The notes beneath the pieces were generated by a model. That model had not been told where the DNA came from. It saw only the letters and a program-made list of their open reading frames with translations, and searched no databases. A DNA stretch of 64,000 bases from Escherichia phage ECML-359: the sequence record OL631482.1. The stretch is one strand, 5' to 3'. The position numbers were made by a program, and so were the translations under genes. This document shows positions 1,767-44,365 of the stretch, piece by piece (within the stretch, counting starts at the first letter, position 1; each line of letters opens with the position of its first letter).

Positions 1767-2018
1767 TTAATCCTTGGGAGTTAACTCAATTGTAAAATAT
1801 AGATTAGCATTATCCACATGATAACGGTAATCAACGTTATTATCCGGCGAAGTAAATTCCAGATTCCGGACGTTTAAAGGGTCGATATCAATTGGAAGAC
1901 CTTTTATGTCTCGCAGATAAAGTTTAATGAAATATGGGAGCGCAGTAAAGTCTTCCTCGATTTTATCTAAAAAATCGGTAATATCAAATTGATGTTCCAT
2001 ATAAAAAATCCAAATCAC
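1767..2018 (-). CDS. hypothetical protein (83 aa; start may be the internal Met at 2000)
   Basis: ORF track; overlaps gp55 3-prime end. Confidence 0.45.
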
Positions 2019-2541
2019 CTTCTTTATCTTTGGCGCTCTTATCAGACCCTGGCGCTTTAACTAAAGAGGATTCGTACTGTGTCATTTTGTCATAGATGTC
2101 CTGGATAAATGTTTCATCAGCCAGAGCCACCATATCGTCGTCACGTGAATCATACACGTTATGAACGAAGTAGCTATATTTCTTTGCCATTTCTTTACGT
2201 TCTTTTTTGATACGCTGAACGAAAGCATTGAAGCAAGCCATTGTTATGTAAGCATGTGGATTATCGTATTTTGTTTCGTCGAAGTTATGAAGACCTTTTA
2301 TTGCGGCCTCAATTCCGTCTGCAATCATTTCTTGCTTCCAGGATTGGGTATATCCGGAGAAGTTGAAACGTTTGCTAAGACCTTCGGCTATAAGCATAAT
2401 TGCCAGACCAATAACATCGTTCTGGCGAATAATTTTATTCGGGTCGGTGTTCGCATTCAGCTTCTGTTTCCACTCCGAAATAGCTTTCAGAAGCTCTTTA
2501 TTATTTACATAGTTATTCTTGGTTAATTTAATTTCGTTCAT
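1984..2541 (-). CDS. 55: late-transcription sigma factor gp55
   Basis: 185 aa; near-identical blocks to T4 gp55 as recalled ([41 protein letters not shown]). Confidence 0.9.
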
Positions 2542-6282: not shown

Positions 6283-8096
6283 TGGTGTTTAACCCTATGC
6301 ATGATTTCTTTATTTTTGCCGAGATTAAATCCGCGTTCGTTCGGATTTCCCAAATAACCGCAAGTTCTTCTTATTGTGTTCATCTTTTTAGGGTCAGTTT
6401 CTCCACAAATAGAACAAACAAATCCGTTTTCAGTAGGAGTCATTTCATGGGTACTTCCACACGTAAAACATTTATCTACTGGCATGTTAACACCAAAATA
6501 ATCTAAATGTTGCGCGGCATAATCCCATACAGCCTCAAGACCTTTTAGGTTATTTTTCATATCAGGAAGTTCAACATAAGAAATGTGACCACCTGTCGCA
6601 ATGAAATGATATGGTGCTTCACGAGAAATCTTTTCAAACGGAGTGATATTTTCTTCTACTGAAACATGGAAACTGTTAGTGTACCATCCTTTATCGGTAA
6701 CATCTTTTACACTTCCATATTTTTCAGTATCAAGTTTACAGAAGCGATAACAAAGGTTTTCAGCAGGAGTAGAATACAAGCTAAAAGCAAAACCGGTTCT
6801 TTCAGTCCACTGCTTAAGACGAGCATTCATTTTAGTCAAAATTTCTTGTCCAATATCACGACCGACAAGAATATTCAATTCGTGAATACCAATGTATCCC
6901 AAAGACACTGAACTTCTACCGTTTTTAAATAACTCAATTATATCATCATCGGGTTTAAGACGAACCCCGAATGCACCTTCTTGGTAAAGAATAGGAGCAA
7001 CAGTCGCTTTAACTCCTTTTAAGGAATTAATTCTACACATCAAAGCTTCAAAACACAAATCCATTCGCTCATTGAACAATTCGATAAATTTCTGTTCATT
7101 GAACTGTGTTCCAATATAAGAATCTAACGCAATGCGAGGAAGATTCAGTGTTACAACGCCAAGATTATTACGTCCATCAAGAATTTCATTGCCAGTCGAA
7201 TCTTTCCATAAGCTCAAGAAACTACGGCAACCCATTGGAGAAACAGGAATAGATGAACCGGTGATAGCTTTGTTATTCTTAACTGAAATAATATCAGGAT
7301 ACATCCTTTTGCTTGCACACTCTAGAGCAAGCTGCTTAATATCATAGTTCGGGTCGTCTTTATAAAGATTAACACCTTCTTCAACGAACATAACAAGTTT
7401 AGGGAAAATAGGAGTTATCCCATCGCGACCAAGGCCTTTAATACGATTTTTCAGAATTGCTTTCTGAATCATTCGTTCAGTCCAGTCAGTTCCCGTGCCA
7501 AACGTAATTGTCACAAAAGGCGTTTGCCCATTTGAACTAAAGAGCGTATTTACTTCATATTCATAAGCTTGGAATGCATCGTATACGTCTTTTTCTGTTT
7601 TAGATTGGGCATAATTCAATGCATCAGTGATTTGCCATTTTTCTGCATCTTCAATATGTTTTGCGTATGTACGTTTAACATAAGGAGAAAATACTTTGTC
7701 TACATTAGCAAAAGTCGTTCCGCCATATTGGTGAGAAGCAACCTGTGCAGTAATTTGTGCCATAATTGCAGTAGCAACACCGATTGATTTAGGAGTTTCA
7801 ATCTGTGCATTACCAAGCTTAAATCCGTTCTCAAGCATTCCTTTTAAATCTACTAAACAGCAATTAGTAAATGGAAGAGCAGGGGAATAATCAATATCAT
7901 GGAAATGAATAATTCCACTTTCATGTGCTTTCATAATAAAAGACGCGACCATATTTTTGGCAATGTGTTTAGATACAATACCAGCCATAAGGTCCCGTTG
8001 AGTTGGAAAAACACGAGAATCTTTATTAGCATTCTCGTTTAAAAGGTCTTTATTAGTTTTATGAATCAATCCTTCAATTTCGTTTTCAATTGTCAT
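6279..8096 (-). CDS. nrdD: anaerobic ribonucleoside-triphosphate reductase (class III)
   Basis: 605 aa; C-terminal glycyl-radical motif RRTCGYLG and CxxC zinc ribbon; continuous ORF with no intron. Confidence 0.95.
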   Translation of the reverse strand: MTIENEIEGLIHKTNKDLLNENANKDSRVFPTQRDLMAGIVSKHIAKNMVASFIMKAHESGIIHFHDIDYSPALPFTNCCLVDLKGMLENGFKLGNAQIETPKSIGVATAIMAQITAQVASHQYGGTTFANVDKVFSPYVKRTYAKHIEDAEKWQITDALNYAQSKTEKDVYDAFQAYEYEVNTLFSSNGQTPFVTITFGTGTDWTERMIQKAILKNRIKGLGRDGITPIFPKLVMFVEEGVNLYKDDPNYDIKQLALECASKRMYPDIISVKNNKAITGSSIPVSPMGCRSFLSLWKDSTGNEILDGRNNLGVVTLNLPRIALDSYIGTQFNEQKFIELFNERMDLCFEALMCRINSLKGVKATVAPILYQEGAFGVRLKPDDDIIELFKNGRSSVSLGYIGIHELNILVGRDIGQEILTKMNARLKQWTERTGFAFSLYSTPAENLCYRFCKLDTEKYGSVKDVTDKGWYTNSFHVSVEENITPFEKISREAPYHFIATGGHISYVELPDMKNNLKGLEAVWDYAAQHLDYFGVNMPVDKCFTCGSTHEMTPTENGFVCSICGETDPKKMNTIRRTCGYLGNPNERGFNLGKNKEIMHRVKHQ

Positions 8097-8566
8097 TTTA
8101 AACTCTTTCTAAGCTGCTTCTTAAATGAAGCCATTAATTGTGTTTTGGTGTCAGATTCATTATAAGTCATACCATTCAAAAGCATTTCCCGAATCATTTC
8201 TTCTTTCCCCAGACGACCGAACTCTTTGGCTTTGTCTGTTACAAAATTGGGGTGAATATTGTTTTCGGTATAATCAGATTTCAGATAGACAAGCAAACTC
8301 TCTAACCATTCCAGGTAGTCAACATCGCGACTTTTTAGACCTGAACGGCTGAACTTATGCTTCATTTGTCCTTCTGTTCCATTGCACAGATTGCATAGTA
8401 ACCCGCGAACCTTACCAGCTTTTGGCCCGTTCAATTCGTGGTCATGGTCAAGATGGTTGGCCTGAACATCGGTGTCCAAATCACGGTGGCAAATTGGACA
8501 CTTACCAGCTTGTGCATCATAAAGTTTTTGTTTTTCTTCTTTGTATAATTTGCCAGTCAACAACAT
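8093..8566 (-). CDS. 49: endonuclease VII (Holliday junction resolvase)
   Basis: 157 aa; CPICHRDL...ANHLDHDHELNGPKAGKVRGLLCNLCN matches T4 gp49 as recalled. Confidence 0.9.
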   Translation of the reverse strand: MLLTGKLYKEEKQKLYDAQAGKCPICHRDLDTDVQANHLDHDHELNGPKAGKVRGLLCNLCNGTEGQMKHKFSRSGLKSRDVDYLEWLESLLVYLKSDYTENNIHPNFVTDKAKEFGRLGKEEMIREMLLNGMTYNESDTKTQLMASFKKQLRKSLK

Positions 8567-8777
8567 AATAAACCCTTACCATTATTAGATAAGGGTATTT
8601 ATTAAATCTTATAAAACGCGCGGTGTAACCGTTTAAATTGACGAATCATCTTTTTAGTAGGACGAGTATACAATCCCACACAGGTGGCCATAAACTGGTC
8701 AGTAGGGCTTCCTTTGATAAGAAGTTTCCAGACCTTGTCACCGTTTAACTTTTCGGTATAGACTAATGCAGTTTTCA

Positions 8778-25908: not shown

Positions 25909-26172
25909 TTATGCTTTACCGCCAGAAACAATACCAAAGGTCTCAAAGTCCCATTCAATATCATCAACATCAACTTTCTTACCAGCAACAACAAATGCGA
26001 TTTCACGGCGTTTTGCATAGGTGACAATTTCTTTACCATCACCGCCAAAGAAAGAATACCCATTACGCTTCATGGTGCCAAAGTCTTCAGCATCGCCAGC
26101 AAAGGCGCGAACTTTAAAAGCACCAGTAGGAGCTTTGGCAGATTCAGTAATAAATTCTTGATAAGTTTTCAT
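25909..26172 (-). CDS. internal-protein-like virion protein with capsid-targeting N-terminus
   Basis: From internal Met: MKTYQEFITES...; mature part shares GDAEDF..(K/R)NGY motif with 39408..39707. Confidence 0.65.
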   Translation of the reverse strand: MKTYQEFITESAKAPTGAFKVRAFAGDAEDFGTMKRNGYSFFGGDGKEIVTYAKRREIAFVVAGKKVDVDDIEWDFETFGIVSGGKA

Positions 26173-26220
26173 TTTATATTCCATTGTTTGGTTGATAAAA
26201 TCATTATACAACCTTTTTAG

Positions 26221-26637
26221 TTAAGCGTACACAGCTTTCCCATAGTATTTGTACCAGGTAGGCTTTTGAGAAATTTTCTCATTCAGTCTGGCTTGACTGA
26301 TTTCAATTGACCAGATTGATGGTTGATAATCATTCTTCCATTCATCAGGAATATCATTTAAATCTTGTGTAGAAATATCTTTTATGTTAAACCCTCGCTT
26401 TAAACATTCCGCAATAAGTTCTTGATGCCGGTTTTTAAGGAACAAAAGCTTATCATAAAAGAAGGTGACATGACCAGTCCCTAAAAGAAAAGATGATGGG
26501 ATTTTAAAGTCAGACACCTTTTTACCATTTTGCACATGCTTACGAACAGCGCCAAAAACGCGAGGAAGTTCACGATATTCAGCCATAAGATGTTGGTCAG
26601 CGAGTTCAGATACCAGGGTTAAATTAATGCGAGTCAT
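26221..26637 (-). CDS. denV: endonuclease V (pyrimidine-dimer DNA glycosylase)
   Basis: 138 aa; [35 protein letters not shown]...[10 protein letters not shown] matches T4 DenV as recalled. Confidence 0.9.
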
Positions 26638-26663
26638 GTTTGTTCTCCGTAGTTGATAGGGTC

Positions 26664-26692
26664 ATTATAACCCTATCATTTGGAGATGTACA
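26664..26692 (-). promoter_or_regulatory. early promoter (-35 TGTACA, 17 bp, -10 TATAAT) inside palindrome
   Basis: Minus-strand reading TGTACAtctccaaatgatagggtTATAAT upstream of denV. Confidence 0.5.
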
Positions 26693-27181
26693 CTAATATG
26701 CGTCAAAAGTTCCGGTACGGAACGTTTCTATAACTCGTTTGGCTCGGTTCGGAGTCTGGACTTTATACCATCTTGAGTCCGCCAGTTCCTTGGCAGCCGC
26801 TTCCCATGATTTAGCCTTCAGTAATCGCATACCCTTAGGAAAACCAGCAACACCAGCAACACCCATCTGGAATACCATATTAATGAGTGCACAACGACGA
26901 ACTTCATCCAGTACATCATAAACAGGTTTTAAGACAGGATGCCTCAAGATTCCGGCTTTAGCCTTTTCGACCGAACGGTTAAACAGTGTTTCGGCTTCGT
27001 GCTGGGTTATACGACCATTACAAACGCGACCCATGAGCTTATCGAGCTCGGCGCGAGCAACATCTTTAGATGGGTTCTTAGTTATCAGTTGCCCGATGCC
27101 AATGGTCCAATAGCCTTCAGTATCTTTATACAAATCCAACTTACAACCTTCATCTATACGTAACATTTCGAATATATTCAT
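26693..27181 (-). CDS. e: lysozyme (endolysin)
   Basis: 162 aa; [12 protein letters not shown]...[13 protein letters not shown]...[14 protein letters not shown] matches T4 lysozyme as recalled. Confidence 0.95.
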
Positions 27182-27182
27182 A

Positions 27183-27204
27183 ATACCCCCTTATATAGGG
27201 GTAT
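27183..27204 (-). promoter_or_regulatory. leader hairpin occluding the lysozyme SD, with overlapping late-promoter-like AATAAATA
   Basis: 7-bp stem ATACCCC/GGGGTAT ending 1 nt before the e start codon; AAGGGGG SD lies in the loop/3-prime arm. Confidence 0.5.
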
Positions 27205-27207
27205 TTA

Positions 27208-27666
27208 TTATCCGAAAATTTGAGTCATTACCTTGTACATCGATTTGCCCATCACATACTGCCATTGACTCGGTTTAATCAGAGCAAATGCATCGAACTC
27301 TGGAACCGAACTACCATCCGGGAAGGTATGATAGGCAGAGCATTTACTATGTCTGAACTGCTCATGCTCGACCGGAACCGTGTACAGAAACAGGTGAAGA
27401 TTTTTGTTATCTGAATAACGGAATTCACCCAGGTCCTTTAAGAATGCTGGGTCATATTGGGTAAACCCGGTTTCTTCTTCGGTTTCACGGATAGCAGCTT
27501 CAATCGGGGATTCACCAGCTTCAACATGACCCTTAGGGATGTCCCATTTGTGTGCAGGCATACCTGGTTTACGAGAACCAGTCACACGACCCATGAATAA
27601 CTCTTTATCTTCAGTCATGAAAATAATGCCGGCGGATAATTCTTTCACCTTGTTTTTCTTACTCAT
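27208..27666 (-). CDS. nudE: Nudix hydrolase
   Basis: Nudix box GHVEAGESPIEAAIRETEEETGF; start at MSKKNKV after trimming track ORF. Confidence 0.8.
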   Translation of the reverse strand: MSKKNKVKELSAGIIFMTEDKELFMGRVTGSRKPGMPAHKWDIPKGHVEAGESPIEAAIRETEEETGFTQYDPAFLKDLGEFRYSDNKNLHLFLYTVPVEHEQFRHSKCSAYHTFPDGSSVPEFDAFALIKPSQWQYVMGKSMYKVMTQIFG

Positions 27667-27895
27667 CGTCACGTTTCCATGATTGGTTAAAAATATCACT
27701 CATTAAAAATTCAAGTCTATTTTCCAATGAAGGAGATTCACTATCAGAAGTTTGAATTCTGTATTCAGAAATCGGGCGGAACATATCTAAGTCAGTTTCT
27801 AAATCATCTTTGATTTTCTCTTCTGATGTACCAGTATCATAGGAATACAGATAAGAATCACATGACTCGGATTTAATATAAATTGCAATACTCAT
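27659..27895 (-). CDS. hypothetical acidic protein (78 aa)
   Basis: ORF track; ATG overlaps upstream stop. Confidence 0.45.
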   Translation of the reverse strand: MSIAIYIKSESCDSYLYSYDTGTSEEKIKDDLETDLDMFRPISEYRIQTSDSESPSLENRLEFLMSDIFNQSWKRDDE

Positions 27896-28479
27896 TTACG
27901 GCATTCCTCAATAAAGGAGTTCAATGTATTTTTCTTAGTGATATCGTCATATACCTTTTTAACTTTAGAAATACGAAAAGGTACTTCAATAACCATAGTC
28001 CATAAAAATGATGCAATAAGCCCAGCGAGAGCAGTAGAAAAGCACGCACCCATTACAGCTACGGGTGCTTCATTTTTGCCTGTCAAGAAAAACCACAGAA
28101 ACGGTAAAAATAAGATTCCAGCCCAGGCATAAAACCTGGAACAAATTAACTTATCAAATTCATCACTCCAGGTACGAAATCCATATTTCTTGCTATAAGA
28201 AATTAATGGGTCTGGTGTCTGTTCTTTGAGCGGTTCTGGTTGATGCCCATTAATAATGTATCCCATTTTATATTCCTTAATTAAAAGCTCTTTCACATGA
28301 CGATTGCATCGCGACCAATCAACATTTTCCACCTTGATTCCTTCATCACCATCATCAAGGTTCGCCCAATATTTTTTGGTAATCATAAATTCATCTCTTG
28401 ATACAATTATACCTGCATTTTCTGCCCGGCGGATGAAGTTTACATCAACACCCATGCACCCGGGCTCATAAAGGGCCAT
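27892..28479 (-). CDS. hypothetical membrane protein (195 aa) with C-terminal FIEECRK
   Basis: Two C-terminal TM helices (FYAWAGILFLPFLWFFL, VAVMGACFSTALAGLIASFLWTMVI). Confidence 0.5.
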   Translation of the reverse strand: MALYEPGCMGVDVNFIRRAENAGIIVSRDEFMITKKYWANLDDGDEGIKVENVDWSRCNRHVKELLIKEYKMGYIINGHQPEPLKEQTPDPLISYSKKYGFRTWSDEFDKLICSRFYAWAGILFLPFLWFFLTGKNEAPVAVMGACFSTALAGLIASFLWTMVIEVPFRISKVKKVYDDITKKNTLNSFIEECRK

Positions 28480-29171
28480 TACCAGCCCTCCATAGGGAAT
28501 TCCAGATATACTTGAGCATTAACGCGGATTTCATTTGTAATCTTTTTAACACGGTCAGTATTACGAGACACACGACCAAACCAGCGCCACCCGTTACTTA
28601 CTGCGCGAGAACCTGTATGCCATGTCTGCCAATCAAACTGGAGCAATGTGCGGTCAGGAGCATCCCACTTGGTTAATTCATTGGACTCAATTTTTTCCAG
28701 AACTTCTTTATGCCACTGACGATAGATAAGTTCGCCTTCAGGAATCTGACTAAATTGTGCAGTTCCGGTTGCAAAATAAGTAGGACACACATCAGCGTTA
28801 ACAAGACCAAGAATATGTTCAGAATGGTAACGAGGATTATCATAATCAGGTTGCCCTGCGGTAATAAAGTGTTGACCCACCGGAATATCCGGACGTGGTA
28901 CATCGTCATGGTGATAACCTGGGATAGCAGGATACCAACCAGGCATCAGCATATGAACCCGAGAATCAAACACCAAATTATCGGGGCCATCAGTCCATTC
29001 TTTTGGTAGGTTATCAAGAAAACTGCGCGTGATTGGACCACCATGCTCATACGCAAATTCTGGATAGCAGTTAAAGAACATTGGTTCATTTTTGATTTGG
29101 TCATTTTGTACGTTATGTGCAAAACCACCAACTGCACGAGCTTGACTATTAAAAGTTTTCGGACCGTTCAT
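28479..29171 (-). CDS. hypothetical protein with 2OG-Fe(II)-oxygenase-like motif arrangement
   Basis: YHHDD (HxD), downstream His (WHTGS) and RxS (GRVS) in the order seen in 2OG oxygenases; motif-level only. Confidence 0.5.
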   Translation of the reverse strand: MNGPKTFNSQARAVGGFAHNVQNDQIKNEPMFFNCYPEFAYEHGGPITRSFLDNLPKEWTDGPDNLVFDSRVHMLMPGWYPAIPGYHHDDVPRPDIPVGQHFITAGQPDYDNPRYHSEHILGLVNADVCPTYFATGTAQFSQIPEGELIYRQWHKEVLEKIESNELTKWDAPDRTLLQFDWQTWHTGSRAVSNGWRWFGRVSRNTDRVKKITNEIRVNAQVYLEFPMEGW

Positions 29172-42443: not shown

Positions 42444-43277
42444 TTATGAATTTCTCCATACTTTCTGGGAAGAGAATCTTTTGCCTTTCGACATAAATTG
42501 TTGCAACGGAAGCATAACAACGTTTGCCCAGTCGCTGGGCTTGATTTCAGTGATAGTACCTTTTATATTGCCAGGTATATATGCTTTAATCATCTGGTCA
42601 GCCCCTTTAAATCCCTTCACCTTTGACCAATCAATCTTCAGATGAGTCTTGTTCGTAATCGTAGGAGTATTAGCATATTGCTTAAGAAGTTCCTCAAGGA
42701 ACTCTTGACGTGCCTTCGGTGGAATATAGTGCAAGTTCAAACCGTACATCAAATTATGCTTACCTAGACCAAGATAAATGATTAACGGATATTTGTCCCA
42801 GTACGGAAGAGTATCCTTATGCTTTGCATCATAGATATAAGCATAAAGTTTGCCTGGTTGAGGTTTAGCCGTTACGTGACCGCGAACTGATTTCTTAATT
42901 GTCTCTGCGAACCATCTGGCGGATTTGGTGTTGCTTGCAGCGCCTTCGTTAGCAATCTTATCTCTTATGCTCTTCCTAAAGCTATTCACCATTATCAGCT
43001 GGCGTTCAGCCTTCGTAAGTTTACCAGCAGGTTTCTTTTTGAGCTTGGATACTTTATAAGCAGTCTGAATTCTTGAATGATACCTCGACATGCTTTTGGT
43101 AAAGGTCGAATAATTGATTCCTTTCTCTTCAGCAAACTTCTTCGAGGTCATTCCCTTTTCTTTTGCTGTATAAAATTCAACCCCTATCTCAACCCATTGT
43201 TGTTCGGATTTACTGGGTTTCGGACCTGGTTTATCTGCAGATTCATTGATAAATGTAAAAATACTCATCCTTTCCAT
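42444..43277 (-). CDS. 2: DNA end-protector protein gp2
   Basis: Basic protein in T4 gp2 position; alternative start ATG 43268 (MSIFTF). Confidence 0.85.
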
Positions 43278-43714
43278 CCTAATTTTTTCAGTGAGTTTTC
43301 AGTGATTATCCTGAACGTTATACCCATTTTATCTGCGGTAGCTTGCGCAGCTTTCCATTTGTCAGAGTTAACACTCCAGGTGTACATCTCGTTAATAAAT
43401 CTCTTTTTACTCGCGGCTGTATTATTAACCGGTTTGGTTGGAGGTCTTGTTTCTTTTAATGGCTTAACTTCAAAAAAGAACTGTTGTCCTGTATCAAACT
43501 TAACCCAGAAATCCATATAATATCTGCGCTTTTTCCCTTCAGCATTGCAGAAGTATGGAATAATCACAGTCTCAGAACCCCATTGAACAACGTTCGGATG
43601 GTTGTCGAGCCATCTCATCAACCACGCCTCCCAGCTTGACCGGTATTGTATTTTCTTCCAGTCGCCCTTATATTTTTCTATATTAGTGGGCTTAAATTTC
43701 CCGGAGTATGCCAT
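43265..43714 (-). CDS. 4: head completion protein gp4
   Basis: 149 aa; [31 protein letters not shown]...[10 protein letters not shown] matches T4 gp4 as recalled. Confidence 0.9.
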
Positions 43715-43762
43715 ATAGCCTCCTAATAAATATTGATATACTTATTTATAAATGGAGGCTTT

Positions 43763-44365
43763 ATGCTTTTTTCATTTTTTAACCCAATTGATTATGATGC
43801 TAAAACAATCAGAAAAAACTCGGCATCATTAACGAAAGAAGATGTCTTAAGCATCCCAATGACTGACATCTTCAGAAACTATCGTGCATATTTTGATAAG
43901 GTCGCGGTTAATTATACACCGAAAACATATTACATCGCCGGAGCTCCGAGACCTGAAGAACTTGCATATCAGCTCTATGGTAATACTCAACTCTATTGGG
44001 TTCTCCTTATGCTTAATAATATCTATGACCCGTATTATGGTTGGATATGTTCACAAGAATCATCATATCAGGCATCAATTCAACGCTATTCGAATATAGG
44101 TGGTAATCAGGTCCTTTATCATGTAAATGAAGACGGTGAAAAATTCTGGAATCTTGTTTCTTATCCTGATAATCCATACACATGGTATGATAAAGGTGAT
44201 AAGAACAAATTATACCCACAGTATGAAGGCCCATTAGCTGCAGTGGATATCTACGAAGATGCTATTCGCAAAAATGAATATAAACGAGAAATAAAGATAA
44301 TCGACCCTAATGATATCGAATCATTTATTTCGGCATTAATCCGCGAGATGGAGAAGGCGCTATGA
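43763..44365 (+). CDS. 53: baseplate wedge protein gp53
   Basis: Start at MLFSFFNPIDYDAKT with GGAGG SD (track start is an upstream TTG); PMTDIFRNY...YWVLLM...DPYYGW matches T4 gp53 as recalled. Confidence 0.85.
   Translation: MLFSFFNPIDYDAKTIRKNSASLTKEDVLSIPMTDIFRNYRAYFDKVAVNYTPKTYYIAGAPRPEELAYQLYGNTQLYWVLLMLNNIYDPYYGWICSQESSYQASIQRYSNIGGNQVLYHVNEDGEKFWNLVSYPDNPYTWYDKGDKNKLYPQYEGPLAAVDIYEDAIRKNEYKREIKIIDPNDIESFISALIREMEKAL

Follow-up and report, generated by a model that had tools for sequence, protein, structure and literature searches.

A candidate T4-type leader hairpin and late promoter at the lysozyme gene of Escherichia phage ECML-359

The lysozyme gene of Escherichia phage ECML-359 is directly preceded by a hairpin that pairs its Shine-Dalgarno (SD) core, and a late promoter octamer overlaps the 5' arm of that hairpin. 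In the 64,000-nucleotide stretch of sequence record OL631482.1 analysed here (hereafter the window), this feature is very probably the orthologue of the leader switch of T4 gene e, by which early read-through RNA would be masked and late RNA would be open. The first-pass annotation of this DNA, made from the letters and their open reading frames, had read the site as a reproduction of the T4 mechanism, and gene identity, synteny, structure, promoter placement and comparative data all support that reading. The mechanism itself is already known: work of 1986 established it for T4, and a review of 2010 predicted it for relatives. The present results support an annotation of 27182-27209 as a late promoter with a regulatory hairpin, and have little importance beyond annotation.

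According to that review (PMC3014915), the early transcripts of T4 extend into e and form an inhibitory structure that reduces lysozyme synthesis 100-fold (citing McPheeters 1986), and two late promoters give rise to transcripts that lack the 5' strand of this structure; the original T4 e report named there is McPheeters et al. 1986, Nucleic Acids Res 14:5813. The same review predicts similar e leaders, with a late promoter in the region of the 5' strand, for close T4-type relatives (Figure 5A), and describes helices that mask the ribosome-binding site (RBS), and whose 5' strand contains a late promoter or has one close by, also for T4 gene 49 (endonuclease VII), soc and I-TevI. These three leaders follow the same design principle as that of e, and differ from it in regulating other genes at separate loci. 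The review passages considered here make no mention of JS98, JS10 or SP18, and give no cross-lineage co-variation statistics or energetics of e leaders. Our literature search on the late promoters or e leaders of JS98, VR7 or SP18 found nothing specific.

The window belongs to Gaprivervirus (SP18/VR7 group). Its nearest records, 95-97% identical, are Yersinia phage vB_YenM_P8, Escherichia phage vB_EcoM_RZ and Shigella phage SP18, the last of which is classified in Tevenvirinae, Gaprivervirus. SP18 and other relatives have e/lysozyme annotated at the homologous gene, and the lysozyme of a near-identical locus (L002) is 68% identical to T4 e. The gene nudE lies directly upstream of e in the window, and the gene order is the same in T4 and SP18. 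The public records of relatives carry no regulatory annotation at the e leader, and Rfam covariance models run against 26000-28500 on both strands gave no match up to E = 1. The features on which the argument rests are the following.

26693..27181, minus strand: gene e, T4-type lysozyme of 162 aa (ORF; Pfam PF00959)
27182..27190, minus strand: 3' arm of the hairpin, GGGGGUAUU, with the SD core GGGGG inside at 27190-27186 (fold)
27193-27185, minus strand: full SD-like run, UAAGGGGGU
27191..27196, minus strand: loop AUAUAA (fold; the DNA reads TATATAAG)
27197..27205, minus strand: 5' arm of the hairpin, AAUACCCCU (minimum-energy and centroid folds)
27205-27197 paired with 27190-27182, minus strand: leader hairpin of 9 bp, -13.1 kcal/mol (minimum-energy and centroid folds)
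27202..27209, minus strand: putative late (gp55-type) promoter octamer AATAAATA (exact match; taken as -13 to -6)
27208..27666, minus strand: nudE, Nudix hydrolase (ORF; Pfam NUDIX; SP18 annotation)
27217-27209 paired with 27174-27166 (span 27166..27217), minus strand: tentative outer helix, in read-through RNA only (minimum-energy and centroid folds of a 96-nt leader)
1984-2541, minus strand: gp55 late sigma factor (phrog_234, E = 3.7e-68)

The 26-nt gap between nudE and e reads, on the coding strand from 5' to 3', gga-TAA-TAAATACCCCTATATAAGGGGGTATT-ATG, and the leader up to the start codon is ggaTAATAAATACCCCTATATAAGGGGGTATT|ATG. In the predicted fold the 3' end of the hairpin directly abuts the lysozyme AUG (27181-27179) on the minus strand. 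The first-pass annotation had described a stem of 7 bp ending 1 nt before the AUG and burying the ribosome-binding site AAGGGGG. That stem is present, at 27204-27198 with 27189-27183, and the distance of 1 nt is correct for it; it turns out that the minimum-energy fold lengthens the stem to 9 bp, which reaches the AUG itself. All five G of AAGGGGG (27192-27186) are base-paired in the 3' arm, as had been proposed. Within the 5' arm, CCCC(U) forms the anti-SD segment, at promoter positions -5 to -1.

The octamer that had been noticed as a late-promoter-like sequence with seven of eight matches, overlapping the 5' arm, is an exact AATAAATA at 27209-27202 and has 4 nt in common with that arm. The count of one mismatch stands, but the octamer is not a weakened promoter: in T4-like phages the T at -13 is poorly conserved and A or T is common there (PMC1524935), and in the window the same octamer precedes baseplate gene 53 by 30 nt and gene 49 by 29 nt. 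In a cryo-EM structure, the pockets of gp55 receive the bases at -12, -9 and -8 (PMC7892883). Six of the seven copies of TATAAATA and three of the seven copies of AATAAATA in the window lie 9-31 nt before the start of an ORF on the same strand, where the share of positions qualifying by chance is, by our own estimate, about 2%. The genes that follow TATAAATA include the rI antiholin, an internal head protein, head closure gp4 and a gp9/10-like baseplate protein, and those that follow AATAAATA are baseplate gp53, endonuclease VII and lysozyme. AATAAATA is a normal form of the late promoter. The gp55 ORF itself (1984-2541, minus strand) was recognised by PHROGs and had no match in a Pfam search.

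The T4 late octamer occupies -13 to -6 (PMC1524935), and by this rule +1 is the sixth base after the octamer. The late transcription start is accordingly predicted at A27196, the first base of the loop; a start at this base would leave the late RNA without the entire 5' arm. This agrees, at the level of sequence, with the start inside the loop, 3' of the 5' arm, at which the first-pass annotation had placed the late promoter.

Removal of the 5' arm has a large calculated effect. Opening the region from -12 to +13 costs 19.1-19.8 kcal/mol on read-through RNA and 3.1-3.3 kcal/mol on RNA starting at 27196, 27195 or 27194, the start at 27196 giving 3.3 kcal/mol. Opening of the SD alone costs 14.3 kcal/mol on read-through RNA against about 1.0-1.3 kcal/mol on late RNA; the late leader of 18 nt is unstructured, with a fold of 0.0 kcal/mol. 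A comparison of folds with and without the 5' arm had been suggested as a check of the proposed mechanism, and the fall of the RBS-opening cost from about 19-20 to about 3 kcal/mol is its outcome. Among the 123 ORF starts of the window, the e leader ranks first both by local hairpin energy and by RBS-opening cost, the latter being 19.8 kcal/mol at e against a median of 6.5 and a 95th percentile of 14.5 kcal/mol. Gene 49, the other well-known T4 example, comes second in hairpin energy within the window. Set against its own dinucleotide shuffles, the isolated hairpin is weakly better (z = -1.6 to -1.9; 8-11 of 200 shuffles fold equally well), but the test is a weak one, because shuffling preserves the C-run and the G-run. 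We therefore use the rank within the window and the comparative data as the main support.

These elements suggest the following course of events, by analogy with T4. Early in infection, transcripts from upstream would run through nudE into e and carry both arms of the hairpin. As pairing would cover the SD core and the whole spacer before the AUG, 30S subunits could not bind and little lysozyme would be made. After the onset of replication, RNA polymerase with gp55 would recognise AATAAATA at 27209-27202 and start at about A27196. As the anti-SD CCCCU lies in promoter positions -5 to -1, it would not be transcribed, and the late mRNA, with an unstructured leader of 15 nt and a free SD, would be translated. 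For this phage, we infer the early read-through, the late start site and the difference in translation from the sequence. The genes nudE and e are on the same strand, with no minus-strand terminator-like site in the gap between them. Sigma-70-like matches upstream of e are at chance level, so that the probable read-through from nudE into e is argued from the gene arrangement and the analogy with T4.

The read-through RNA may contain one further element. In the tentative outer helix (9 bp), the end of nudE, including its stop codon, pairs with codons 3-5 of e and encloses both the hairpin and the AUG. With this helix the opening cost rises by about 5 kcal/mol, and the 96-nt read-through leader has a z of -2.1. 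The region of this helix is identical among Gaprivervirus leaders, and the outer helices of other lineages differ in sequence. In two other loci (L003 and L004), the outer helix is formed by GUCUGUAGG with CCUAUGGAC and pairs the AUG.

The geometry of the leader is tight: promoter positions -5 to -1 hold the anti-SD segment, and the octamer often incorporates the upstream stop codon. In the window, the nudE stop TAA occupies 27210-27208, 2 nt from the stem; its last two bases are octamer positions 1-2, and the first base of the octamer is A because this stop supplies these two positions. Overlap between the upstream stop and the octamer, in one register or another, is seen in 16 of 24 leaders with distinct flanks (loci L003-L090 and the window). 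The register of the window, in which a TAA or TGA stop makes octamer position 1 an A or a G, recurs in 9 of the 23 others, and in six of the 24 the stop overlaps the octamer in other registers, for example as a TAA inside it. Where the octamer begins with T, the stop is always further upstream, outside the octamer.

Since ribosomes terminating on the nudE stop, 2 nt from the stem, could partly open it, early silencing may be leakier than in T4. In its full form, this alternative holds that the switch is real and leaky by design, in that ribosomes ending nudE open the base of the stem, and that early lysozyme in the window lineage and many relatives, though not in T4, is not simply off but low and coupled to nudE translation. 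A ribosome on the stop lowers the calculated SD-opening cost from 14.3 to 9.4 kcal/mol for a helicase boundary at +11, to 6.1 for +13 and to 2.5 for +15, the last value applying only when the whole ribosome footprint is counted, and the frequent overlap of stop and octamer in these leaders, set against the T4 stop, which lies 6 nt upstream of the octamer, would fit such coupling. At the conservative helicase boundary, however, a GC-rich core of 6 bp still holds the SD, and premature lysozyme is presumably selected against (PMC3014915). We consider coupled leakage, both as a design of the switch and as a description of early lysozyme in these lineages, to be unlikely; it would be a nuance compatible with the T4-type switch.

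The leader of the switch proposed here, masked early and open late, shares several features with that of T4. In both phages an orthologous lysozyme gene adjoins nudE; in both, the stem takes in the SD and extends as far as the AUG, with nearly equal energies (-13.1 kcal/mol in the window and -13.3 kcal/mol in T4); the spacer from SD to AUG is UAUU in both; and the octamer stands at an equal register, overlapping the 5' arm. The two leaders differ in that T4 has two copies of TATAAATA, of which one overlaps the arm and the other lies in the loop, whereas the window has the upstream one only, in the form AATAAATA; in the loop, which is AUAUAA (6 nt) in the window and 8 nt long in T4; and in the SD, which is GGGGG with a compensating C in the 5' arm in the window and GGAGG in T4. 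Among the leaders compared, the exact TATAAATA in the loop of T4 is kept in no other lineage. It is therefore the upstream promoter, identified as such by the first-pass annotation, that is conserved.

Three scans of viral contigs with lysozyme queries yielded more than 100 loci, and the T4-like contigs among them gave 20 distinct leaders after de-duplication from octamer to ATG. All 20 carry NATAAATA followed by C, with N being T in 4, A in 11 and G in 5, and ATAAATA is invariant at the octamer register. In every one of them the octamer is directly 5' of, or overlaps, the stem that pairs the SD core. Two stem designs occur. In the first (the type of T4, the window and JS98), AAUAC of the promoter pairs with GUAUU of the spacer, adjoining the AUG; in the second, the spacer is UCCU and the stem is extended on the loop side, UAUC pairing with GAUA. 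When the leaders are anchored on the SD, the central five pairs are present in 20 of 20. In each leader the opening cost of the read-through RNA minus that of the late RNA is above zero; the mean difference is 12.1 kcal/mol and the smallest 6.8 kcal/mol. Our comparison of 20 leaders reproduces and extends what PMC3014915 predicted for other T4-type phages, and it suggests that the classic T4 device for delaying lysozyme is retained in Gaprivervirus and in every T4-like lineage sampled here.

The arms of the stem appear to have changed together. The pair at the centre of the SD is U-A in 19 leaders and C-G in the window lineage only (C27199-G27188). This lineage alone has changed the SD from GGAGG to GGGGG, with a matching U-to-C change in the 5' arm, and its unusual SD is thus compensated by that C-G pair. 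Of the cells in the SD-anchored alignment (A2), 85% are paired, and sliding the partners lowers this share to 38-52%. Double changes occur in three pairs (four cells), a result matched by 1 of 500 shuffles; these were counted on an N-padded alignment fitted by hand to the structure, which leans towards the structure, and the leaders are related, so that independent double changes are few. Cognate pairs of arms have a mean energy of -12.15 kcal/mol against -9.63 kcal/mol for chimeras, and none of 20000 permutations was as good. The hairpin is conserved in relatives, and these sequence data lend modest support to its maintenance by co-varying arms. A plain MAFFT alignment of the leaders (A1), in which the two stem classes did not line up by structure, was replaced by the SD-anchored one.

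The same data bear on whether the complementarity could be a by-product of a late promoter and a strong SD that are constrained separately, the timing of e being then set by transcription alone. Each of the two, ATAAATAC and the SD, is indeed strongly conserved, shuffles are weakly beaten by the stem, and the double changes are few. Nevertheless, the anti-SD segment at -5 to -1, which the literature that we retrieved does not describe as constrained in sequence, complements the SD in 20 of 20 leaders; the rare GGGGG SD is matched by the U-to-C change in the 5' arm; two different stem designs both keep the SD paired; the e leader ranks first of the 123 starts in the window; and the T4 orthologue is reported to cut lysozyme synthesis 100-fold (PMC3014915). 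An origin as a by-product is accordingly very unlikely.

Also very improbable, in our judgement, is that the hairpin serves mainly as a transcription terminator or a 3'-end stabiliser of the early nudE unit, translational masking being irrelevant: the GC-rich stem does start 2 nt past the nudE stop, and its mirror palindrome on the plus strand resembles a terminator in the scan (owing to the T-rich complement of the octamer), but there is no terminator call on the minus strand, where the stem is followed by AUGAAUAUAUUC and not by a U-run, the features conserved across lineages are SD pairing and contact with the AUG and not a downstream U-tract, and early transcripts of T4 are reported to reach into e (PMC3014915). 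As a candidate intrinsic (Rho-independent) terminator, the hairpin was rejected, there being no U-tract on the transcribed strand, which continues after the stem with AUGAAUAUAUUC. The plus-strand terminator-like site, at 27187-27201, has no plus-strand gene upstream of it.

Other late-promoter sites were found in the window. Before gene 49 (endonuclease VII) there is a second copy of the device, at 8564-8603 on the minus strand, upstream of ORF 8093-8566 (minus strand), which matches Pfam PF02945 and PF09124. In this leader, AATAAATA at 8603-8596 is followed by ACCCUUAUC...GGUAAGGGU and UUAUU-AUG; its fold has an energy of -12.7 kcal/mol (z = -3.7), and RNA starting from about 8590 has just -1.7 kcal/mol. 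Gene 49 of T4 is also preceded by AATAAATA, followed by the same ACCCUUAUC...GGUAAGGGU and UUAUU-AUG, and the gene 49 leaders of T4 and RB6 are nearly identical to that of the window, octamer included. The signature of NATAAATA followed by an anti-SD segment may serve as a finder for further genes controlled in this way, gene 49 (8564-8603) being an example.

A divergent pair of late octamers is located at 43725-43750. The two are 10 nt apart and mutually complementary: AATAAATA on the plus strand stands 30 nt before gene 53 (43763-44365), and TATAAATA on the minus strand stands 28 nt before gene 4 (43265-43714). The starts of gene 53 and gene 4 have high RBS-opening costs, 14.9 and 19.1 kcal/mol, respectively. 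Over the 64 kb, GATAAATA and CATAAATA have zero occurrences on both strands, and TATAAATA and AATAAATA occur 7 times each; the totals of the latter two octamers are at chance level, and these two are non-random only in their placement before gene starts.

More distant lysozyme loci follow a similar plan in a different geometry. In four of them (L034, L043, L052 and L053), long-range SD pairing was seen in a gene neighbourhood that is not that of T4. In L055, at about 1450-1495, CCUCAUAAAUA pairs with UAUUUAAUGAGG, and the whole leader has -16.8 kcal/mol. In L029, a contig of 183 kb, CTAAATA, which is the late motif of the Aeh1 type (PMC1524935), lies inside the 5' arm of a hairpin (region about 1440-1500) that buries a GGAGG, and the whole leader of 87 nt has -25.7 kcal/mol.
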